This document shows, one piece after another, positions 4,259-31,852 of a stretch of 32,000 nucleotides of DNA. The number at the start of each line of letters is the position of its first letter. Within the stretch, counting starts at the first letter, position 1. A model generated the notes under the pieces. That model was not told the DNA's origin. It saw nothing but the letters and a program-made list of their open reading frames with translations, and did not search any database. Source of the DNA: Patescibacteria group bacterium (lineage in GTDB: Bacteria; Patescibacteriota; Patescibacteriia; UBA2591; UBA6264); contig JAQTOB010000003.1 in assembly GCA_028713575.1 (NCBI GenBank), positions 40,350-72,349 of the forward strand, given 5' to 3'. The position numbers and the translations under genes are program-made.

Positions 4259-4485
4259 TTTTTTAAAAGAAAATAAATCAATTAAACGTGGACAAATAAT
4301 TTGATATTATTTATAATAAAAAAATAGTGATAAATGTTTTATATCTCTATTTTTTAAAATTTAAAATTTAAACATGCGGATAAGCATTGACGCTTGTCCC
4401 GACACTAAATCTACGGATTAGTGTGGAACTTCGCTGTTTTGGAAAGAACAAGGCCTTATGGCATAAATTTTTAATCTTAACAAAT

Positions 4486-5010
4486 ATGCGGATAGGTATT
4501 GACGCTCGCTTCTTAGGACTTAAGGTTGGAATTGGGCGTTACACGGAAAAATTAATAGAACACTTAGAAAAGAATGATAATCAGAATGATTATTTTATTT
4601 TTGTTAAAAAACAGAATTTCAACCTCTATTGTCCAACCAATAAGAGATTTCATAGAGTTTTGGCTGACGACCAATGGTATTCGTTCAGGGAACAAATATT
4701 TTTTCCCCACCGGCTTTATAAACAAAGACTGGACTTAGTGCATTTTCTTCATTTTAATGTTCCTTTACTGTATTTTGGAAAATTTATTATAACTATTCAC
4801 GATTTAACACAAAGAAATCTAACCAAAGAAGCAAGCAAACGGCCTTGGCTATTTTTTCTATTTAAAAAGGCGGCCTATCGGCTGATCATATGGAGCGCTT
4901 TAAGGAGGGCCGAAAAGATTATCACAGTATCCAATTTTACTAAACAACAAATAATTAAATATTATAACGTGAATCCCGAAAAAATATCAGTTGTTTATGA
5001 GTCCTGTTAA
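4486..5010 (+). CDS. Glycosyltransferase family 4, N-terminal domain fragment
   Basis: MRIGIDARFLG...GIGRYT...HFLHFNVP...ITIHDL...VSNFTKQQI...VVYE is a GT4 N-terminal Rossmann domain. It stops at TAA 5008-5010, where the interdomain linker should continue. The track extension 4387-4485 is not credible. Confidence 0.7.
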   Translation: MRIGIDARFLGLKVGIGRYTEKLIEHLEKNDNQNDYFIFVKKQNFNLYCPTNKRFHRVLADDQWYSFREQIFFPHRLYKQRLDLVHFLHFNVPLLYFGKFIITIHDLTQRNLTKEASKRPWLFFLFKKAAYRLIIWSALRRAEKIITVSNFTKQQIIKYYNVNPEKISVVYESC

Positions 5011-5077: not shown

Positions 5078-5632
5078 ATGAATCAGCATAAAAAAAACAA
5101 CCCTTACTTACTTTACGTGGGCAACTCCTGTCCCCATAAAAATCTTGAACGTTTACTTAGGGCTTTTAATGTTGTTTCAAAAGAAATTTCCGATTTGAAT
5201 TTGATTTTAGTGGGCAAAATAGATTATTTTTATAAAAGAACACAGAAACAGGCGGAAAAATTAAAATTAAGTAACAAGGTGATATTCGTCGGCGAATTGT
5301 CAGACGAAGAATTAAACAAGGCCTATCAGGACGGTTTGGCCTATGTTTTTCCTTCTTTGTCCGAGGGGTTTGGCCTACCTGGCTTGGAAGCAATGAAACA
5401 AGATTTACCAGTAATCAGTTCAAATAAAGAGCCTTTGCCTGAAATTTACGGTCAGGCGGCGATTTATTTTAATCCTGAAGATATCCAGGACATGGCTAAA
5501 AAAATTTTAGAAGTTGTTACCAATGGCCCTTTAAGAGAGAGGTTGAAGATTTTAGGAAAAAATCAGGTAAAAAAATATTCTTGGAACAAGTGCTCTAAGC
5601 AAATATTAGAAATTTACAAGCAGATTTTATAA
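5078..5632 (+). CDS. Glycosyltransferase family 4, C-terminal (Glycos_transf_1) domain fragment
   Basis: YLLYVG....KNLERLLRAF...LILVGK...FPSLSEGFGLPGLEAM is the GT4 C-terminal catalytic domain. It is in a different reading frame from the N-terminal fragment. Confidence 0.7.
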   Translation: MNQHKKNNPYLLYVGNSCPHKNLERLLRAFNVVSKEISDLNLILVGKIDYFYKRTQKQAEKLKLSNKVIFVGELSDEELNKAYQDGLAYVFPSLSEGFGLPGLEAMKQDLPVISSNKEPLPEIYGQAAIYFNPEDIQDMAKKILEVVTNGPLRERLKILGKNQVKKYSWNKCSKQILEIYKQIL

Positions 5633-5778: not shown

Positions 5779-6267
5779 TTATAATTTTTCAGTCCCGATC
5801 ATTTTTGGCTCAAAATTTTCATGCGTTAATTTTGAAACGGGTTGGATTGATTTAGACAATTTTTCCACATAATGGTATTGCCATTTTTTTTCTTGTTTAA
5901 AAAATTCTTTTTTCCATTTATTAAACTGTTTCTCTTTTAACCCATATAAGCGACCATCAAGGGCCGGAATAATAATTTTTTTGATTACTTCTCTTTTTCG
6001 GACCAATAAAACAATTTGATGTCGTCGGATAGAAGTTTTTGTTTTATCTTGATATTCATATTCATAAATAGATTCTTTTAGGCCTAGACTATTTTTAAGG
6101 GCAAAAAGAAGCTTTTTATCATTATGGCGCATTCTAATTTGGAAAACGGCATTTTTTGAATTTTTATTACCATAAGTCCAGCTAAAATATCCATTTTCAC
6201 AAATTAGGCCGGCAATAAAATCAAAAGAAAGGTTTTTAACATTTGTAATATTGGGAATCTTTGACAT
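5779..6267 (-). CDS. Free-standing single-motif LAGLIDADG homing-endonuclease-like protein
   Basis: 162 aa. FDFIAGLICENGYF matches the LAGLIDADG helix. Downstream pattern (FQIRMRHNDKKLLFALKNSLGL...IIIPALDG..LYGLKEKQFNKW) is typical of the family. Confidence 0.75.
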   Translation of the reverse strand: MSKIPNITNVKNLSFDFIAGLICENGYFSWTYGNKNSKNAVFQIRMRHNDKKLLFALKNSLGLKESIYEYEYQDKTKTSIRRHQIVLLVRKREVIKKIIIPALDGRLYGLKEKQFNKWKKEFFKQEKKWQYHYVEKLSKSIQPVSKLTHENFEPKMIGTEKL

Positions 6268-6406
6268 AAGATATGTTTATTTAGGAATGTTCCTCGCGGA
6301 ACATTTCGTTATACAGTATAACAAAATTAAGAAATAAAGTAAATAGATAAATCAATAATATCCCTTTTTAATAATATATTATTAGCGTCGTAAATTATAA
6401 ATAATT

Positions 6407-6900
6407 AATGCGAATTATCTTTAAAAACCAATTTTACGAATGGTTTTTACATTATATAGGGGCACGAGTTTAATATAATGGTTATAATGTGAGCCTTTAA
6501 TTAAACCTATATTATATAAGCAGGCCAAAGCTCTCATGGGGCCAGTTCCCTAAAAGTAGTCAAAATAGTTCTAAATTTAAAAAATCCTTCTAAAACGCTT
6601 TACTGATAAGACTTTTAGAAGGGTATTTTGGGGGGACAGTCCCCTTTTTGAATAAATGCGAATTATCTTTAAAAACCAATTTTACGAATGGTTTTTACAT
6701 TATATAGGGGCACGAGTTTAATATAATGGTTATAATGTGAGCCTTTAATTAAACCTATATTATATAAGCAGGCCAAAGCTCTCATGGGGCCAGTTCCCTA
6801 AAAGTAGTCAAAATAGTTCTAAATTTAAAAAATCCTTCTAAAACGCTTTACTGATAAGACTTTTAGAAGGGTATTTTGGGGGGACAGTCCCCTTTTTGAA
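6407..6900. repeat. Perfect tandem direct duplication, 2 x 246 bp separated by 2 nt (period 248)
   Basis: 6407-6652 and 6655-6900 are identical by eye at every position. Confidence 0.95.
6630..6649 (+). terminator. Intrinsic-terminator-like hairpin at the end of repeat unit 1 (same element at 6878-6897)
   Basis: GGGGA-CAG-TCCCC stem-loop directly followed by TTTTT. Confidence 0.45.
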
Positions 6901-6948
6901 GAAAGTCTCTTTTTTAAAGAAGCCCCGAGCGAGGCGGCTGATTTAATA

Positions 6949-7223
6949 TGGTGGACTTAGGCAGAATTGAGCTGCCGTCTCCGCAACTCGCTCCGTTAGA
7001 AATTTAGTATGTGAATCACCGCGCCAAATTCTTAAATAGATAATTCCATTTTATTTTGAAAGCACTTACAATAATTAGAAGTATAGATTTAGTGTAGGAG
7101 TGGACTCGACGAGAATCGAACTCGTATTTCCGCAATGCGAATGCGGTGTACTGCCGTTGTACTACGAGCCCTAATTTTCTAACGGGGTGAAAATGCGGCG
7201 CACCACTGCTGTACTATAAGCCC
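6949..7223 (-). other. Interrupted tRNA-Ala-like gene: 5' half 7223->7187, 3' half 6986->6949 with encoded CCA, ~200-nt intervening segment
   Basis: The halves pair 7/7 in the acceptor stem (GGGCTTA/TAAGTCC, G3.U70) and 5/5 in the anticodon stem (CCGCA/TGCGG). T arm is GGCAG-CTCAATT-CTGCC. The intervening segment is bounded by inverted repeats at 6993-7007 and 7171-7185. Confidence 0.6.
7101..7171 (-). tRNA. tRNA-Ala (anticodon CGC)
   Basis: GGGCTCG/CGAGTCC acceptor with G3.U70, CCGCA-TTCGCAT-TGCGG anticodon arm, ACGAG-TTCGATT-CTCGT T arm, discriminator A. No encoded CCA. Confidence 0.85.
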
Positions 7224-11365: not shown

Positions 11366-11638
11366 ATGTTGAAAGGAGCTCTAAATGTTATTGTAATTAT
11401 AATTTTTATCTTTATTTTTTTGGTTTGGTTTCTTGATTTAACCGCCTCTAACCAGACGGAAGGCAATTTAATTAAAATGCTTGAGGGGGCGGTAATTGAA
11501 GCGGGGAAATCTTTTAAAGAATTTAAAGATAACATAAACCTGTTTAGGGGCGAAAAATCTTTCGTGCCATTAAATGAAACAGAAATAGATATTTTAAAAG
11601 AAAAAATTTTACAGCATGAAGATGAAGAAAAAAAATAA
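11366..11638 (+). CDS. Small membrane-anchored hypothetical protein
   Basis: 90 aa with an N-terminal hydrophobic helix ([16 protein letters not shown]) and a charged tail. Overlaps the gyrA start by 23 nt. Confidence 0.4.
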
Positions 11639-14600
11639 AAAACCTGAAATTAATAAAAAAGAAAATTTGTTAAACGGGCCTTCTATAGAAATTAGAAAAG
11701 AAAAGATAGAGTTAGTTGACATGGAGCAAGAAGTCAGCCGCTGTTATATAGATTACGCCATGAGTGTTATTGTTTCTCGCGCTCTTCCTGACGTGCGTGA
11801 TGGTTTAAAGCCGGTTCATCGACGAATCCTCTATGCAATGTTTGAAATGGGCTTAAAACCCAATGTTAAATATAGAAAATCGGCAACAGTGGTAGGAGAA
11901 GTTTTGGGGAAATTTCATCCACATGGCGACGCCGCGGTTTATGACGCCATGGTAAGAATGGCTCAGGACTTTTCTTTACGTTATCCTTTAATTGATGGCC
12001 AAGGGAACTGGGGGTCTAATGAAGATGAGGCGGCCCATATGAGATACTGTATTGGCGGAAATTCATTGGTTATTACTAATAGATGTTTAGAGAGGATAGA
12101 GAACATCTCAAAGAAAGAGAATATAAACATCAAAGTACTTTCCTTTGACAATAAAATAAACAGGGCGTCAAAATGGTTTGATTCGGGACTCCACCCCACT
12201 TTAACCGTTAGGACGTTCAGGGGGATGACTCTTTGTGGAAGCTTTAACCATCCCATTTTGACCTGGGATTTAAACGGAGAAAAGCCGGGATTCAAGTGGA
12301 AGTTGTTGGAAAATTTGGAGAAAAACGATTACGCGGTGATTTCCAGGAGCGATCCGCTTTGGTCCGGGAAAGACCCTCTTTTGAAAAAATTCCATCAAAT
12401 CCCCGTAAACAAAAGGACGAAAGTTCACGTTTTGCCCAAGAAAATGACACCGGAATTGGCTTTTATTCTCGGAGCGATAATCGCCGAAGGATATACGGCT
12501 AAGGGATATCGCAATTCGGGGAGCAAAAAATGGCAGCCGCCGTATATCGGATTTTGTAACAGTAATGAAGAATTTATAGAAAAATTCAAGCAGAATTTCA
12601 AAAAAACATTTCCAGACTGCCGTTTACATGAATTTAAACGCCGGTCGCAGGGGCGGACCAGAAAAAAATACGTTTTGGAAGTCCGCTCAAAACACGTAGT
12701 CGATTTTTTAATAAACCTCGGTTTGAAACATTGTCGGGCCGGAGACAAAACTGTTCCTCCGGCGTTGTTCCACGCTTCTCCCAAAACGATAACCACTTTT
12801 CTTAGGGCCTATGCGGAGGGCGAAGGCAGCGTTTATGAGAGCGTGAATAAAAAAAGAAAAAGCGTTTATTCAACCGTCGTTTTGGCTTCCAAGGGAAAAC
12901 GATTATTGGAAGAGATTCAAATTATTCTGTTAAGATTAGGGATAGTCTCTTCCTTCAGGAACAAAAAACAGAGAAATACACACAGATTATTTATCTTTGG
13001 TTACGATAATCTGAATCTGTTTCGGCAACATATCAATTTTGTTTCTCACGACAAAATTAGTCGTCTTCTGAAATCCATACAGAATAACGGGGGAGATAAA
13101 GCCATATCCAAAGCGGATTATATCCCTTTCATGACAGAGTATATAAGAGATAAATACAAGAAAAAGCGGTCCGTGATTCACGAGGACCAAAAGTGGATAG
13201 AAAAGCACAATTTTGATAGATTGCCGAAAATAAAAAATTACTGGGACAAAATCAAATCCATTCTCGATGAAGGCGATGTAAAATTACTCAATAGTCTAAT
13301 AAAAAATAATTATTTATTTGACAAAATTGTTTCAATCAGAAAGAGCGGTTTTCAAAAAGTCTATTCTCTAAAAGTAGAAAGCGATTGTCATTCTTTTATT
13401 TCCAATGGTTTTATCAGCCACAACACCGAGTGTCGTCTGGCGCCCATTGCCGAAGAGGTTTTGGCTGACATTGACAAAAAAACAGTTGACCTAATTTCCA
13501 ACTATGATGGAACATTAAAAGAGCCCGTTGTTCTTCCAACAAAAATTCCCACTTTAATTCTCAATGGTTCAATGGGAATCGCCGTAGGGATGGCCACTAA
13601 TATTCCCCCTCACAATCTAACGGAAGTTTGCAACGCCCTAAATTATTTAATTGACCATCCTGAGGCAGAAATAGAAGAAATTTTTAAATTTATTAATGGG
13701 CCCGATTTTCCAACGGGCGGCATTATTTTTAATTCTGATCAGATAAAACAAGTTTACGCCATTGGTAAGGGCCCGATTTTAATGAGAGCTAAAACAGAAA
13801 TTATTGAAAAAAATCTTAGTAGTTTTTGCATCATTATCAACGAACTTCCTTATCAAGTTAATAAAGCCGTTCTTTTACAAAAAATTGCCGAGTTAGTAAA
13901 AGACAAAAGAATTGAGGATATTAAGGATATTCGCGACGAGTCAGACAGAGAGGGAATCAGAATTGTTATTGAGCTTAAAAAGGGAGCATATCCTCAAAAG
14001 GTTTTAAACAAACTTTTTAAGCTTACTGATTTACAAATGACTTTTCATGTTAATATGGTTTCTTTAATTAATGGAATCCAGCCAAGAGTTATGGGATTAA
14101 AGGGGGTTTTAGAAGAGTATATTCAACACCGTCAAATTATTGTTAGACGAAGAAGTGAGTATGATTTGGAAAAAACAAACGAAAGAATTCACATTTTAAA
14201 AGGGTTGCAAACGGCATTGGACCATTTAGACGAGATTATAAAAATAATCAGACATTCTCAGGACAGAGAAACTGCTAAAAATAATTTAATAAAAAAATAT
14301 AGATTAACCGAGGTTCAGGCTCAGGCAATATTAGAGACAAAACTTCATCAATTAGCTAACTTAGAAAGACAAAAAATTAAAGAGGAATTAAAAGAAAAAA
14401 TTCAAAAAGCCAAAGAATTAGAAACATTACTCGCTCAACCCAAAATGATTTTAGACATTATAAAGAAAGAAACCAAAGAATTAAAAGAAAAATATGGGGA
14501 CGAAAGAAGGACCCAGGTGGTTTCTCAAGGGGTGGAAAATTTTAAGGAAGAAGATTTAGTCCCCAATGAGCCGGCGATTATTATTATTACTCAAGACGGT

Positions 14601-15524
14601 TATATAAAAAGAATTTCTCCAGAAAATTTTAAAATTCAGGCGAGAGGAGGAAAGGGGGTGACGGGATTAGAAATCAAAGAAGAAGATAGAGTTCAACATT
14701 TAATTGCTACAACCACTCATGCTAATGTTTTGTTTTTTACCACAAAAGGAAAAGTTTTTCAATTAAAAACCTATGACGTTCCTCAGGCACAACGGGCCGC
14801 CAAAGGACAGGCGTTAGTTAATTTTTTAGAAACAGGACCACAAGAAAAAATATCTTCAATTTTGCCGATTTCAGATTTGAAAAATTATAAAAATTTAGTG
14901 ATGGTTACGCGACAAGGGGTTATTAAAAAAGTTTCCATTAATGATTTTATTAACGTTAGAAGGTCGGGGTTGATTGCCATTAAATTAAAAGACAATGATG
15001 TTTTAAGGTGGGTGAAGCCCACAACAGGCAATGATGAAATAGTTTTGATTTCGGCCCTAGGACAGGCTATTAAATTTAAAGAAAAAGATTTAAGACCAAT
15101 GGGGCGGGGAGCCACAGGCGTGAGGGGGATGAGAATAAAAAATCAGGATTTTATTGTTGGGATGGATGTTTATCAGGCCGGAAAAACAAATATTAATAAC
15201 AAATTATTAGTAATTACTGAAAATGGCTTTGGAAAAATGACATTAATAAAAGATTATCGTTTTCAGCATCGGGGAGGGTCCGGCACTAAAACCGCTAAAA
15301 TTACAGATAAAACAGGGAAAATTGTTGATGCTAGACTAATTAATGAAAAAGATTTGCCCAATCACATAAAAGGAGATTTATTACTTATTTCTCAGCAGGG
15401 GCAGACCATCCGCTTGCCGATTAAAAGCATTCCCACCATGAGCCGGTCAACCCAGGGAGTGAGATTAATGCGCTTTTCAGCCAAAAACGGGAAGGACCAA
15501 GTAAGCTCTTCAACCTTAATTTAA
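11616..15524 (+). CDS. gyrA: DNA gyrase subunit A, interrupted by an intein
   Basis: Exteins carry canonical GyrA blocks: [35 protein letters not shown]|...|TECRL, and C-terminal beta-pinwheel repeats. Confidence 0.95.
12048..13424 (+). mobile_element. GyrA intein (459 aa) with LAGLIDADG homing-endonuclease domain
   Basis: Starts at Cys ([10 protein letters not shown]) right after the active-site MRY. Ends ...NGFISHN followed by Thr (TECRL). Block B is NHPILT. LAGLIDADG motifs are [14 protein letters not shown] and [13 protein letters not shown]. Confidence 0.9.
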
Positions 15525-16169: not shown

Positions 16170-18398
16170 ATGTTTGCCAAAAAAAATAAAAATTTAATTT
16201 TTATTTGTTTATTAGTATTCCAAATAATAAACCCTTTTAATTTTATAGAAAAAACAAAAGCCCTTGAACGGGATTCAGGGTCTGTCCCCGGCGAACTTTT
16301 AATAAAATTAAAAGGAAATTCTAAAATTTATAAAGTAAAAATCACAGACAATTTAATGGAAAGACAAAGGGTTGTTTTGGATATGCCGGAAGTGGAATGG
16401 GCGGAGCCCAATTATTTGTTTAAAATGAGTTATTTGCCCAATGATTTGTATTATCATGAACAATGGTATTTTAATAAAATAAAAACTCCGCAAGCTTGGG
16501 ACCTAATAAAGGGCGGAGACGGCGATATTATAATTGCTGTTTTAGACACAGGGGTGGACATTGACCATCCGGACATTAAAAAGAATGTATGGATCAATCA
16601 AAATGAGGTTTCCAATGACGGAAAAGACAATGATAACAACGGTTATATAGACGACTTAAATGGCTGGGATTTTATTAGAAATAATCCTAATCCCCGGCCA
16701 AAATTTGATGAATTATATACTGAAGGAGGAATCCATCACGGAACCTTGGTAGCCGGGATTGCTGCTGCCAGTGGAGACAATAACGAGGGGGTTTTAGGAA
16801 TTGCCTGGCAGAGTAAAATAATGCCCTTAAGAGTGTTAAACAGCGAGGGGGTTGGCAGTGTAGACCACGTTATTCAAGCAATTAATTATGCGGTCAACAA
16901 CGGAGCTAATGTTATAAATTTAAGTTTTGTTGGAACGAGTAAAAGTTATTTTTTGGCCGAAGCGCTAAAGTCCGCTTGGCACAAGGGTTTGATTATCGTT
17001 GCCGCGGCTGGGAATGAAACAACCGATCAACCGGTTAATTTAAATCAAAGTCCGAATTATCCGATTTGTCTTGATGAAAAAGATGAAAATTTTATTATTG
17101 GCGTGGCGGCCGTGGATAATACTGATCGCAAGGCCCTTTTTTCCGATTATGGATCAAATTGCGTTGACATTTCTGCTCCGGGCACGAGAATTTATGGCCT
17201 TTTGTCTTACAATCAAAATTATGATGGCTTTAAAGAATATTACGGCGGTTATTGGTCTGGCACCTCACTTGCCGCTCCCATGGTTTCTGGTTTGGCCGCT
17301 TTAGTTTGGTCTGTTAATCCCCTTTTTAGCAATAAACAGGTCCAAAATTTTATTTTATCAAAAGCAGATGGGATTAATTTAATCAATCCTAATTATAAAA
17401 ATCAGTTAGGGACGGGGAGAATAAATGCTTATCAGGCGGTAGAATATGCTTATAATCAACTAAGCGGATTGCCGCAATCTCATTATATTGTTACCGGCGC
17501 GGGCGCCAGCGGCGGACCTCATATTAGGGCTTTTGACTCTTCGGGTTTATTGATTAGTAATTTTTTCGCTTTTCATGAAAGTTTTAGGGGCGGTGTAAAT
17601 GTGGCGGCCGGAGATGTTGATGGCGACGGCCGGGACGAAATTATTGCCGGCGCGGGCGCCAGCGGCGGACCCCATATCAGAGTTTTTGATTTATATGGAC
17701 AACCGAAAGGAGGATTTTTCGCTTTTCATGAAAGTTTTAGGGGCGGTGTAAATGTGGCGGCCGGAGATGTTGATGGCGACGGCCGGGACGAGATTATTAC
17801 TGGAATAGGGAAAGGAGGGCTTCCTCAGGTTAAAATTTTTGATTTAACGGGTAATTTAAAAAAAGAAATAATGGCCTTTCATGAAAGTTTTAGGGGCGGT
17901 GTAAATGTGGCGGCCGGAGATGTTGATGGCGACGGTCGGGACGAGATTATTGCCGGCGCGGGCGCCAGTGGCGGACCCCATATCAGAGTTTTTGATAAAG
18001 ACGGCAATTTAAAATTTCATTTTTTTGCCTTTCATGAAAGTTTTAGGGGCGGTGTAAATGTGGCGGCCGGAGATGTTGATGGCGATATGAGAGATGAAAT
18101 TATTGTTAGCGTTGCTTCCGGCGCTTCGTCTTATGTTAGAATTTTTAGCCCAGAACTTCTTTTACTAAGATATCAATTTTTGGCCCATTCAAAGGATTTT
18201 TATAACGGGGTCAGAATTGCAACCGCTGACTTTGACAATAATCAACAAGCGGAGATTATCACTTCTTCCGGTCCGATTATAGAACCGCAAGTGCAAGTTT
18301 TTGATTCATTGGGCGGACAATTGTCACAATTTTACGCCTATAATCGTTATTTTAGAGGCGGCGTAAATGTGGCAACAATAAGAACTCAAGGATATTAA
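16170..18398 (+). CDS. Secreted subtilisin-like (S8) serine protease with a C-terminal FG-GAP repeat beta-propeller
   Basis: Signal-like N-terminus. Catalytic D (VLDTGVD), H (HHGTLVAG), S (SGTSLAAPMVSG). Then FAFHESFRGGVNVAAGDVDGDGRDEII repeated about 6 times. Confidence 0.85.
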   Translation: MFAKKNKNLIFICLLVFQIINPFNFIEKTKALERDSGSVPGELLIKLKGNSKIYKVKITDNLMERQRVVLDMPEVEWAEPNYLFKMSYLPNDLYYHEQWYFNKIKTPQAWDLIKGGDGDIIIAVLDTGVDIDHPDIKKNVWINQNEVSNDGKDNDNNGYIDDLNGWDFIRNNPNPRPKFDELYTEGGIHHGTLVAGIAAASGDNNEGVLGIAWQSKIMPLRVLNSEGVGSVDHVIQAINYAVNNGANVINLSFVGTSKSYFLAEALKSAWHKGLIIVAAAGNETTDQPVNLNQSPNYPICLDEKDENFIIGVAAVDNTDRKALFSDYGSNCVDISAPGTRIYGLLSYNQNYDGFKEYYGGYWSGTSLAAPMVSGLAALVWSVNPLFSNKQVQNFILSKADGINLINPNYKNQLGTGRINAYQAVEYAYNQLSGLPQSHYIVTGAGASGGPHIRAFDSSGLLISNFFAFHESFRGGVNVAAGDVDGDGRDEIIAGAGASGGPHIRVFDLYGQPKGGFFAFHESFRGGVNVAAGDVDGDGRDEIITGIGKGGLPQVKIFDLTGNLKKEIMAFHESFRGGVNVAAGDVDGDGRDEIIAGAGASGGPHIRVFDKDGNLKFHFFAFHESFRGGVNVAAGDVDGDMRDEIIVSVASGASSYVRIFSPELLLLRYQFLAHSKDFYNGVRIATADFDNNQQAEIITSSGPIIEPQVQVFDSLGGQLSQFYAYNRYFRGGVNVATIRTQGY
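17470..18398 (+). repeat. In-frame 153-nt (51-aa) FG-GAP tandem repeats; four copies nearly identical at the DNA level
   Basis: The TTTCATGAAAGTTTTAGGGGCGGTGTAAATGTGGC core recurs with its ATG at 17575, 17728, 17881 and 18034 (exact 153-nt period). Degenerate copies follow near 18187 and 18340. Confidence 0.9.
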
Positions 18399-25176: not shown

Positions 25177-25617
25177 AAAGGGAAAAAGTCTAGAAACCCG
25201 GCGCGACCTGATTATTAGTTTGAATAAGTAAACTTTAGGTGATGGAGGGGTTCAATCCCTCCAGGACTTTTTATTCACCCCATTTACCTTACCCCGACCG
25301 ATGATTTTATCATCAACGGCAAAGTAATAGACGTGCTAAGCGTCTGAGGAACAATTTTTCTTTAAAGGAGTTATCCATAAGAAGATGATGTTTTGTTGAT
25401 ATCAACAAAACATCAATATATAATTTTCCAGGGCAATTTCTTGCAGGTCTGACCTGCAAGAGGCATTATAAGAAGTATTCATTAAAATCGCACCAAATTT
25501 GAATTTTGCTTCTAAAACGCTTTATTAATCAGTATTTTAGAGGCATGGTTTATGGGGTCAGACCCCAAGTCGATAATTATTGTAATCAGGGGCCGGAAAA
25601 GAAAATAATAATTTATT

Positions 25618-26469
25618 ATGATTTTTGAACATCAGTCAAAAAATAAGGAGATATTACTTTTTATATCCCTCATTGTTTTAATATTGGGTATTTTTGCATT
25701 TTTTTATTCACCAATCATTTTTCAAGAAGGCAATCCCTGGCCACAAATAAAAGGAATAGCCCAGTTAAGTTTTGGCAATAAAGATGTTGTAAAATTAGAT
25801 ATTGGGGAAAATAAATATATTACCAAAAGCAATAATTCAGAGATAATTAAGTCTTTTATGAAGGACAAGGGCTACGATTTTACGGAACAAATGGGCTCGG
25901 GCTATCTTTTTAAATCAAGCGCCGGAGCGAACGCCGTTGCTATTCATAGATATTATAGCCGTTATTATTCGCTTTGGAGTATTACTGAAAGTTTAAATAT
26001 TAACGAAATAAATAATAATTTATGGACAACAACTACCAATAACGATGGAATAACATTTCAATATCCAAAAGAATTATTGGCCAAATATATTAGTGTTGTT
26101 AAATGGCCGCCAACAGTCAAGATAGAGTCGGGCAGTTTTTCCTGCGTGGAAGTTCCGCAAGAAATAAGCAGTGTGTTTGAAATAACCAGTCAGAGAACAG
26201 TTGATAGCAGAATTTACTGTGTTAATGTTAAAAATGAGGGAGCGGCCGGAAGCGTTTATTTTTCTTACTTTTACACGACTTTTAGTGGAGGAAAATTGGT
26301 TTCAGTTAGTTTTGTTTTGCGTTATCCGAATTGTACTAATTACGGAGAAGAACAAAGCCAGGCCTGTACAAATGAACGAGAAGCCTTTGATCTTGACGCC
26401 GTGGTGGATCGCATAGTTCAAACCGTAAAATGGGATCCGGCTTTAAGTGAAGATATTTTAACTAACTAA
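25618..26469 (+). CDS. Membrane-anchored hypothetical protein
   Basis: 283 aa with an N-terminal TM helix (ILLFISLIVLILGIFAFF) and a Cys-containing ectodomain. No recognised motif. Confidence 0.5.
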   Translation: MIFEHQSKNKEILLFISLIVLILGIFAFFYSPIIFQEGNPWPQIKGIAQLSFGNKDVVKLDIGENKYITKSNNSEIIKSFMKDKGYDFTEQMGSGYLFKSSAGANAVAIHRYYSRYYSLWSITESLNINEINNNLWTTTTNNDGITFQYPKELLAKYISVVKWPPTVKIESGSFSCVEVPQEISSVFEITSQRTVDSRIYCVNVKNEGAAGSVYFSYFYTTFSGGKLVSVSFVLRYPNCTNYGEEQSQACTNEREAFDLDAVVDRIVQTVKWDPALSEDILTN

Positions 26470-26682
26470 ATATCTGAATGTTTGGCATTAAATTATCCAA
26501 GAGATAAGAGAAGACACAATAAGCCCTTAAAGCAGATAATTGATTTTAATTCCTGCGTCATGGCAAGATTTTCATATTAAAATTTAATTTAGGCCAGTGC
26601 CAAGCCAGAGGTCATGGGCAACCTCTTGCAATTCTGACCCGCAAGAACTGCAAGAAAATTATAAGAAGATAACATAGATATT

Positions 26683-26946: not shown

Positions 26947-27166
26947 AAAATACAATTTTGATATGAGCCGATGTAGAGGTGGGGCTGATACAGGGGTTGA
27001 ACCTCTACAAACAAAATGTTCGGCAGAAGGTGGACTTCTTGTAGGTCTGACCTGCAAGAAGTTTCTGTAAGAAGTTCTGCAAGAAGTTGTAATGGTCGCT
27101 TTTTTTGTTTTTGGTGGTATAATAAACGACAATAACAAATAAACTGCGGATTGAAATTATACAAAC

Positions 27167-29822: not shown

Positions 29823-29849
29823 CAATTATTAATTGTCCACAATTAGGCA

Positions 29850-29878
29850 TTGACAATTATTTGAGGGTTATTTATAAT
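29850..29878 (+). promoter_or_regulatory. rRNA operon promoter
   Basis: Consensus TTGACA (29850-29855), 17-nt spacer, TATAAT (29873-29878), ~180 nt upstream of the 16S. Confidence 0.6.
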
Positions 29879-30004
29879 AGTTATAATTAAATTGTTAATA
29901 CTTTAATAATGTAATTTAGTTAGTCAATAATCTATCTATATTTATATTTTATATAAGAATAGCGGGGTTATTGACCTCGCTATTTTAACAAGTTCTTTAC
30001 ATAA

Positions 30005-30057: not shown

Positions 30058-31574
<1,517 letters not shown>

Positions 31575-31852
31575 TAGAGAAACCAACCCTTGCCTTTTTA
31601 AGGCAAGAGGTATGGTCGACTTTATTTAAGTTTATTTTAACTTAAATAAAAAGGTTGATTCTCTGTGTTTGATAGGTTTTTTTATTTTTATATAAAAATT
31701 ACGTTTCTTGATAAATTAATAGAAATTGTTATGCTTTAAAAAGCAAAAGAATAAAAACACAAAAAATGTTGTGCTTTATTTATTGGTTAAAATAATTTAT
31801 TTTAGTGAGCAAATATTGACGAATAGAAATAATTCATTAAAATAATTGTTAT

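Follow-up and report, generated by a model that had tools for sequence, protein, structure and literature searches.

A structured intergenic module at several loci of a Patescibacteria genome, probably a family of dispersed repeats

Introduction

REP elements act as terminators or mRNA stabilisers, and tandem pairs or arrays of small RNA (sRNA) genes exist in other bacteria. The genomes of Patescibacteria (candidate phyla radiation, CPR) are tiny and usually described as repeat-poor, and we know of almost no regulatory RNAs in this group. Small dispersed repeats of the ERIC/IRU, RUP, BOX and bcr1 type are about 100–170 bp long (PMC3184786, PMC2759123). The module described here has a unit length of ~106–110 nt and was found in a stretch of 32,000 nt (the window; GenBank assembly GCA_028713575.1, contig JAQTOB010000003.1, positions 40,350 to 72,349) from a Patescibacteria (CPR) genome of 36% G+C with a host genome size of ~0.5 Mb, in which it is part of a tandem array and also lies in front of the gene starting at position 25618 (gene 25618). 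A preliminary description of the window, made without database searches, had recognised the similarity between both places and had proposed a cis-regulatory or riboswitch-like RNA or a mobile RNA module. With modest confidence, we regard the module as representing a new intergenic repeat family, dispersed and structured, of this Patescibacteria lineage, which would spread as DNA and whose hairpins would secondarily serve as bidirectional terminators in one subtype (T-type) or as segments that are read through in the other (L-type).

Results

The tandem array (about 6403 to 6904, without assigned strand) contains 2.0 copies of a 248-nt unit (99% identity according to Tandem Repeats Finder; 100% identity as repeat family D2), each with one T-type module behind 142 nt of unique sequence. 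With R1, a covariance model built from seven copies of the module, the two T-type modules (6546 to 6655 and 6794 to 6903, both on the plus strand) reached 117.8 bits (E 1e-23) and 116.9 bits, respectively. The L-type or leader copy upstream of gene 25618 (25468 to 25577, plus strand) reached 110 bits and is 72% identical to the T-type; its homology is secure from ~25474–25484 on. All three places were united in one family by the repeat finder (D4: 6562–6644, 6810–6892 and 25484–25566; 83 nt, ungapped, 72% identity), and a 16-mer, CTTCTAAAACGCTTTA, is present within the window only there. The similarity between array and leader copy is far above chance (local alignment score of 56 for 6551–6656 against 25468–25577; mean 15.7, standard deviation 2.5 and maximum 25 in 300 shuffles). 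The 38 identities among 50 positions previously counted in the central block AAATTT...TTTTAGA(A/G)G (6573–6622 versus 25495–25544) are exact. The start of the leader module, formerly placed at 25466, has to be moved to ~25474–25484; the bases before it belong to another local repeat, ATTATAAGAAG, which follows a palindrome at 25440 and recurs at 26660.

Two hairpins were predicted by RNAfold in the repeat unit as well as in the leader, as proposed in the preliminary description, with minimum free energies of −25.5 kcal/mol (z −2.7) and −27.1 kcal/mol (z −3.3), respectively. Hairpin 1 is longer than first claimed, since the upstream A-tract pairs with the downstream U-tract to give ~17 pairs (6578–6630, again at 6826–6878, and 25500–25552 in the leader copy, all plus strand). 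In copy 1, which was folded on both strands, it is composed of an A-tract, a 10–12-bp stem (CCTTCTAAAA/TTTTAGAAGG), a loop of 17 nt (CGCTTTACTGATAAGAC) and a T-tract; read on the minus strand, it has ATTTTTTAAATTT after it. Hairpin 2 has a GC stem of six pairs. In the array (6631–6649, again at 6879–6897, plus strand) it reads GGGGGAC-A-GTCCCCT, is followed by TTTTT and resembles an intrinsic terminator (terminator scan: 6630–6645 and 6878–6892). In the leader copy (25553–25567, plus strand) it reads TGGGGTC-A-GACCCCA, lacks a U-tract and ends 51 nt upstream of the ATG at 25618. The T-run difference and the distance to the ATG are as first reported, and so are the substitutions in the stems: in the outer pair of hairpin 1, C-G of the repeat unit corresponds to G25508-C25544 of the leader, a U-A pair has become U.G, and hairpin 2 shows the swap from GGGGA-CAG-TCCCC to GGGGT-CAG-ACCCC.

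Homologs, whose collection had been suggested as a check, exist in the same genome and in two related species. Scans with degenerate patterns covered 241 M metagenome records and 185,579 species genomes; the pattern TCTAAAACGNTTTANNNATNAGNNTTTTA yielded two true matches (L011 and L013) and one chance match in contigs of the JGI metagenomes. A slightly looser pattern gave only four chance matches without common flanks (Bacteroidota, Gammaproteobacteria) in the 185,579 species genomes, and three patterns retrieved nothing, or one chance 18-nt match within a 1050-aa open reading frame (ORF), from viral contigs. BLAST against phages and plasmids left the module unmatched. According to BLAST, L011 carries three copies, one of them T-like and two tandem L-like. 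Positions 6551–6656 of the window and 1539–1644 of L011 are 94% identical over 106 nt, and the similarity ends at both edges, beyond which the flanks are unrelated. The leader copy is 73–77% identical to the two L-type copies of the same species located between adk and map. Because the Adk protein of L011 is 100% identical to that encoded on a 517,351-nt JGI contig (Ga0378408_0000012), which also bears a near-identical version of the window, L011 represents another locus of the same species, ~190 kb away.

In ~59 kb sampled from the 517,351-nt contig, R1 detected five full copies at four loci, positioned at ~230 kb (L021, 10784–10893, 10904–11013 and 12323–12432, minus strand), ~423 kb (L027, 8821–8930) and ~441 kb (L001, 9814–9923); in the strain of the window, three are contained in 32 kb. 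For the species, the count is at least five to six in ~60 kb. Single copies occur in the two related species. That in L013, which stems from the same sample as the sister-species contig L025, shows 83% identity, and the assemblies of species C (L032–L034) contain one diverged copy (54.8 bits). R1 found no copy in the sister-species contigs L025 and L026 or in ~100 kb from more distant Patescibacteria. All copies are situated between called genes, and the module is not coding, as no reading frame is open in all of them. Rfam 15, searched at gathering thresholds for the whole window and at E ≤ 10 for both loci, returned only tRNAs, 16S rRNA and noise; the search in Rfam proposed earlier thus matched no family to the module.

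The genes next to the copies are unrelated to each other, and at three of the four loci of this species the module is antisense to its neighbours. At the first, the array modules lie on the plus strand between tRNA-Arg/tRNA-Ala genes and a LAGLIDADG-like ORF, all encoded on the minus strand. The second, upstream of gene 25618, is in sense orientation. Two antisense copies separate adk from map at the third locus, and the fourth is an antisense copy 14 nt past the stop codon of a 104-aa ORF (ORF104; locus ORF104/ORF143), where a reverse-strand hairpin with U-tract begins 14 nt after the stop. The array copies have no gene downstream in sense orientation (the tRNA genes being antisense), and the T-type copy of L021 is in convergent orientation. 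In species C, the copy is found 42 nt after a PsbP-like gene, on the same side as in the window; the next gene encodes a Lactamase_B protein in place of a homologue of gene 25618. Only the copies before gene 25618 and in species C are placed upstream in sense orientation, and they precede different genes.

The sister-species contig L025 (76–79% nucleotide identity, gene order kept from rplD to a tyrosine recombinase gene) allows a comparison of two of these sites. The genes adk and map overlap by 11 nt in L025; here they are separated by an insert of ~500 nt with two modules, and the C-terminus of Adk is rewritten. Between map and ORF142, the 60 nt present in L025 correspond to a 587-nt insert here, in which ORF104 and a module are accompanied by a separate terminator and an extended −10 promoter. 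Both the adk/map and the map/ORF142 site are without a module in L025 and L026.

Copies also vary between strains. In strains whose array flanks are 99.2–99.6% identical, the array is either 2 × 248 nt or, in the sister strain (L027), one full unit with a 64-nt partial repeat and 17–20-nt repeats of GTCCCCCTTTTGAAG at the same 3′ end. Directly after hairpin 2 of the leader, the sister strain contains GACCCCAAGTCGATAA three times (37 nt of inserted repeats), and GACCCCAGGCCCCGGAATA is found twice after one adk-map copy. The 3′ arm of hairpin 2 is the starting point of all these local duplications, for which we have no explanation other than that the stable hairpin causes slippage or that a nick is set at a specific site. 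Just upstream of the leader module, a segment of 135 nt (25349–25483), which includes a predicted promoter and two palindromes, is replaced by 141 nt of unrelated sequence in L001 and L003. Neither of these alternative segments is homologous to the other or to the 142-nt non-module part of the array unit. The leader copy itself differs between two strains at 5 of 93 positions (94.6% identity), one of the changes turning a central C-G pair of hairpin 1 into C.C, compared to three changes in the adjacent 172 nt of intergenic sequence (98.3%). Short-read contigs from several independent assemblies end inside copies (L009, L010, L023, L029 and L030; L009 and L010 stop 34 nt into the 248-nt unit), as expected for assemblies meeting a multi-copy repeat.

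The duplication hot spot would be best explained by a site acting at the DNA level, at which the palindromes (TGGGGTC-A-GACCCCA or the long hairpin 1) are bound as double- or single-stranded DNA, for instance by a recombinase, by a hairpin-binding transposase like those of the IS200/IS605-RAYT type, or by a protein of the nucleoid or of gene regulation. Hot spots of recombination or insertion, where cassettes such as ORF104, the LAGLIDADG ORF or gene 25618 were acquired, would then be marked by the repeats. Besides the common starting point of the independent duplications, this is consistent with the position of copies at the edges of lineage-specific insertions, the strain-specific replacement exactly at the 5′ edge of the module, a 9-bp core of L-type hairpin 2 (GGTCAGACC) that is the reverse complement of the core of the palindromes at 25440 and 27038, and compensatory changes, which preserve a palindrome as readily as an RNA stem. 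However, no recombinase or transposase gene is adjacent, nor is one for an integron integrase, and the tyrosine recombinase (XerC/D-like) of L021 is kept in the sister species as well, with no copy in the ~16 kb of syntenic sequence fetched from it (L025). Judged by eye without a formal scan, the attC core consensus RYYYAAC/GTTRRRY is not matched by the stems of hairpin 1 (TTCTAAAA/TTTTAGAA). Moreover, hairpins 1 and 2 are unlike each other, in contrast to the paired ends of IS200/IS605 derivatives, and slippage at the hairpin suffices for the duplications without any protein. We consider such a DNA-level site improbable.

Ten sequences, which represent ~3 lineages and two subtypes, were aligned to the model. 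Standard pairs occupy 86.4% of 220 pair cells compared to 81.0% in column shuffles (none of 500 reaching the observed value), and 35–65% if the partners are slid by 1–3 columns. Five pairs change on both sides, and in hairpin 2 the pairs 86-100 and 91-95 covary between the two subtypes. RNAalifold predicted the identical two hairpins with a covariation term of −1.44 kcal/mol, which is small and comes from ten sequences of ~3 lineages. At the level of sequence, the alignment shows that hairpin potential is kept; this is not proof of a selected RNA, because only ~3 lineages and two subtypes are represented. An RNA hairpin, a hairpin of single-stranded DNA and a DNA site bound by a dimer would each account equally well for the conserved palindrome. 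The compensatory changes reported earlier are real and persist with ten sequences, but the preference for an RNA over a DNA-binding site drawn from them does not follow, and covariation between two sequences had no statistical weight before more copies were collected.

The T-type comprises the modules of the tandem array, the copy after ORF104 and that in L013, and the L-type the leader of gene 25618, the two adk-map copies and the copy of species C. T-type copies have three to five U within 8 nt after hairpin 2 and seven to eight U within 10 nt after hairpin 1 on the opposite strand. A GC stem-loop with U-tract was recorded by the terminator scan on the plus strand at both array copies and also in L021 (12347–12333). 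L-type copies, all of which stand between co-directional genes, a position that would require read-through, have zero to three U after hairpin 2, unlike intrinsic terminators, and four after hairpin 1 on the opposite strand. Judged by these signals, T-type copies look like terminators in both directions and L-type copies in neither. We infer that this split is compatible with selection on an inserted repeat.

The product of gene 25618 (25618 to 26469, plus strand), a membrane protein of 283 aa without a Pfam domain above cut-off, belongs to a family that is widespread in Patescibacteria. It is annotated as hypothetical protein of 'Patescibacteria group bacterium', a group in which homologues number in the hundreds. 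A promoter-like site, TTGATA-17-TATAAT (25396 to 25424, plus strand), was predicted by a consensus scan (11 of 12 positions); if it is used, the module would be part of a ~185-nt 5′ untranslated region (UTR) of gene 25618. The site lies in the segment 25349–25483, for which the strains L001 and L003 have the unrelated 141 nt. A 28-nt perfect palindrome, GATGTTTTGTTGATATCAACAAAACATC (25386–25415), overlaps the −35 box of this promoter and looks like an operator. Five homologues of the protein (73–79% identity) were fetched together with their loci; none of them has a module or the neighbours of gene 25618, and in these other neighbourhoods the upstream spacer is mostly almost nil.

Placement of the leader copy in a 5′ UTR is hence reasonable in view of the predicted promoter, but the dedicated regulatory role that had been suggested for it is unsupported. 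As a cis-regulatory leader RNA (riboswitch or attenuator) for gene 25618, the module would have copies of the same sensor with terminator in the repeat units. The sense orientation between a near-consensus promoter-like site and the ATG, the compensatory changes in the hairpins, and the riboswitch-like layout of the T-type, which pairs a conserved hairpin with a terminator, are in accordance with this, as is a possible alternative pairing of the 3′ arm of hairpin 2 with GGGG at 25593–25596. On the other hand, the T-type copies of the array have no sense gene to control, three of the four loci are antisense to unrelated neighbours, and the same-side copy of species C precedes a different gene. 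Furthermore, the fetched homologues of gene 25618 lack the module, no Rfam family is matched even at E ≤ 10, and between strains the leader changes faster than the adjacent sequence, one stem pair being disrupted and 37 nt of repeats inserted. A riboswitch-like function is therefore the least probable of the explanations considered here, and in our view very improbable.

Some further candidates were rejected. An upstream ORF at 25545, which would have indicated a small protein, loses its frame in the sister strain through the 37 nt of repeats, and none of the frames stays open throughout the copies. The hairpin at 25243–25263 is not a tRNA fragment or att mark but an ordinary terminator of the upstream operon, with a compensatory change in the sister strain. 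With regard to CRISPR, tracrRNA, omega-RNA, TIGR and retron systems, no array and no cas, tnpB, iscB, tas or reverse transcriptase gene was found in the window or the loci.

Several other features were recorded in the vicinity of the copies. The LAGLIDADG-like ORF adjoining the tandem array (5779–6267, minus strand; 162 aa, 22.9 bits at a cut-off of 23.1) is free-standing and kept in the sister strain, with no intron or intein context apparent. The 3′ half of a tRNA with encoded CCA (6939–6985, minus strand) lies in an inverted repeat (~6921–6996), 115 nt downstream of tRNA-Ala(CGC), with whose own 3′ half it agrees at 23 of 36 ungapped positions; its T stem is fully compensated (ACGAG/CTCGT to GGCAG/CTGCC). 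Neither ARAGORN nor Rfam called it, and it may represent the scar of an old integration or an element for processing. A permuted tmRNA at 6918–6976 was rejected (no call by ARAGORN, 9 bits for beta_tmRNA in Rfam); the tRNA-Ala-like 3′ half fits better.

A second local family of palindromes, CTTGCAGGTCTGACCTGCAAG (25440–25460, 26625–26645 and 27038–27058), flanks gene 25618 as well as the small ORF that follows. The core of this family, GGTCTGACC, and that of L-type hairpin 2 are reverse complements. The third copy merges into three tandem units of 12 nt (CTGCAAGAAGTT, 27052–27088), and the family was not found in the other fetched loci of the species. A cassette with the sequence GTCGCTTTTTTT(G/A)TTTTTGGTG(G/C)TATAAT, composed of a terminator tail and an extended −10 promoter, is present upstream of an SNase-like gene (27094–27125) and upstream of ORF104 (L021, 11958–11990). 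It appears that this genome has modular intergenic signals, which are used more than once. All three independent assemblies of species C (L032, L033 and L034; first 130–280 nt) end just upstream of the PsbP-like gene, which suggests another repeat or variable region at this place.

The window contains three tRNA genes, a 16S rRNA gene (30058–31575) and the housekeeping genes efp, ssb, rpsF, gyrA, infB, rpsP and trmD. The gyrA gene (11616–15524, plus strand) encodes a 1302-aa GyrA with an intein bearing a LAGLIDADG_3 homing-endonuclease domain, as listed by Pfam for the identical gene (L027, L028). A GT4 glycosyltransferase is split into N-domain and C-domain ORFs (4387–5010 and 5078–5632, plus strand), likewise in L009 and L027. 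A 742-aa S8 peptidase gene contains 3.4 copies of a 153-nt in-frame tandem repeat (17560–18085, plus strand, 79% identity) encoding FG-GAP-like repeats. An inverted repeat of 37 nt (30003–30039/31642–31678, 86% complementarity), probably a processing stem, encloses the 16S rRNA gene, which is preceded by a TTGACA-17-TATAAT promoter (29840–29879) resembling one at 4279–4318. The rRNA genes appear to be unlinked, since no 23S rRNA gene is found within the next ~4 kb in L001.

Discussion

The module occurs in several copies at unlinked loci with unrelated flanks, is non-coding and intergenic, and differs in presence and absence between close relatives. These properties are those of a dispersed repeat, and the family, its copies and contexts, the empty sites, the conservation of the hairpins and the variability between strains are direct observations. 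Mobility as their cause, terminator activity and read-through are conclusions drawn from the sequences. As a dispersed repeat, the family would spread as DNA by insertion or duplication and tend to duplicate locally in tandem at the GC hairpin's 3′ arm, and any effect in place would probably be a by-product of the two hairpins. A T-type copy, with a GC hairpin and U5 on one strand and a long A/U-flanked hairpin with U-rich tract on the other, would probably stop transcription both ways; the array copy, for example, would end the tRNA-Arg/tRNA-Ala transcript ahead of the LAGLIDADG ORF. L-type copies, in which the U-tracts are lost on both strands, are probably read through; the structured segment that this would leave in a 5′ UTR or between cistrons may influence how stable the mRNA is or how it is processed. 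The 'mobile RNA module' of the preliminary description comes close to these findings with regard to the discrete unit, its unlinked loci, the unrelated flanks and the empty sister sites, with spreading as DNA as the favoured view.

Several results weigh against this interpretation. Loss in the sister lineage might also have produced the empty sites, which were compared at 76–79% identity and correspond to complex inserts. With regard to terminal inverted repeats, the best end-to-end matches are 4–7 nt, a score reached by 20 to 168 of 200 shuffles in seven of eight copies and by 17 of 200 in one (L011_rep). No target-site duplication is visible, either as a direct repeat at the ends of the 94%-identical pair or at the empty sites, where the low identity and the complex inserts likewise limit the comparison. 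No transposon or transposase is present in the ~60 kb fetched of the 517-kb contig, the rest of the genome not having been searched. Only two further true copies were retrieved from 241 M records and 185,579 genomes, and the family is therefore rare and narrow; copies per genome are an extrapolation from the ~12% of the genome sampled. Fold z-scores of three copies (−0.7 to −1.0) are unremarkable. The bias of G.U pairs towards the module strand (10 to 5), which extends to copies lying antisense to the adjacent genes, hints weakly at an RNA role. Finally, subtypes that are otherwise 72% identical have both kept a 5′ TCAAAAT motif and the hairpin 1 loop of 17 nt, and neither a selfish repeat nor a plain terminator accounts for them.

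A family of sRNA genes would best explain the conserved loop. According to this explanation, the T-type is a trans-acting sRNA of ~75–100 nt with an unstructured A-rich 5′ part, a long hairpin exposing a functional or seed loop of 17 nt and a rho-independent terminator; the 248-nt tandem units are duplicated sRNA genes, and the L-type is embedded in longer transcripts. The GC hairpin with U5 at the end of the T-type, the loop C(G)CTTTAYTRRT and the TCAAAAT motif common to both subtypes, the G.U bias and the persistence of the family in three species point in this direction, together with a TTGACG-16-TAAAAT site (10 of 12 positions) in species C, for which the conserved TTAAAAT would be the −10 box. 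The other copies, however, have no promoter at a fixed distance and unrelated upstream sequences, and the L-type has no terminator. Indels and a disrupted stem pair among strains, assembly breaks at copies and empty sites in the sister species also disagree with an sRNA gene, which we consider unlikely, though the strongest of the alternatives. Somewhat less likely again is a lineage-specific mobile regulatory RNA of a Patescibacteria genus that is copied around the genome and whose 17-nt loop and 5′ TCAAAAT motif bind a protein or target RNA, as an sRNA of ~80 nt (T-type) or embedded in mRNA (L-type).

If the module is a dispersed repeat, it shows ongoing small-scale plasticity in reduced genomes, since it splits adk and map, duplicates in tandem and differs between strains. 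It is also a practical cause of breaks in metagenome-assembled genomes. For the discovery of RNA motifs it is a warning: compensatory changes between two copies of a palindromic repeat mimic the covariation of a riboswitch and do not show regulation. Should the difference between T- and L-type reflect selection for termination versus read-through, the family would provide a natural experiment on the domestication of inserted repeats.

Among known systems, tandemly duplicated sRNA genes resemble the array, in which each unit ends in a terminator and the loop sequence is kept; unlike these, the family has no conserved promoter and also includes copies inside operons in antisense orientation. T-type copies share with bidirectional intrinsic terminators a hairpin followed by U's on both strands (A-tract, hairpin and U-tract; GC hairpin with U5), but ordinary terminators do not show 94% identity between unlinked loci, a conserved 17-nt loop and a conserved 5′ extension of ~35 nt, and the L-type is devoid of U-tracts. 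The GC-rich intergenic palindrome and its tandem clusters with variable copy number between strains recall REP/BIME sequences. An assignment to this class was rejected: REPs are imperfect palindromes 20–40 nt long, with a conserved 5′ tetranucleotide, and present in hundreds of copies with a RAYT gene in the genome, in contrast to a ~108-nt unit of low known copy number, in which a long A/U-rich hairpin is added and the two hairpins are unlike. [quoted passage not shown] A classic MITE was nevertheless rejected, as the defining terminal inverted repeats (beyond those of shuffles) and target-site duplications were looked for and not found. From the ERIC/RUP class, the family differs in its unrelated sequence, the ~0.5-Mb CPR host, the low known copy number, two different hairpins instead of one long imperfect palindrome, and the absence of the terminal inverted repeats that most named families have. 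With ERIC/IRU, RUP, BOX and bcr1 elements it shares, however, a length of ~100 nt, the non-coding, intergenic and multi-copy occurrence in either orientation, the formation of stable hairpins if transcribed, and a presence that varies between relatives.

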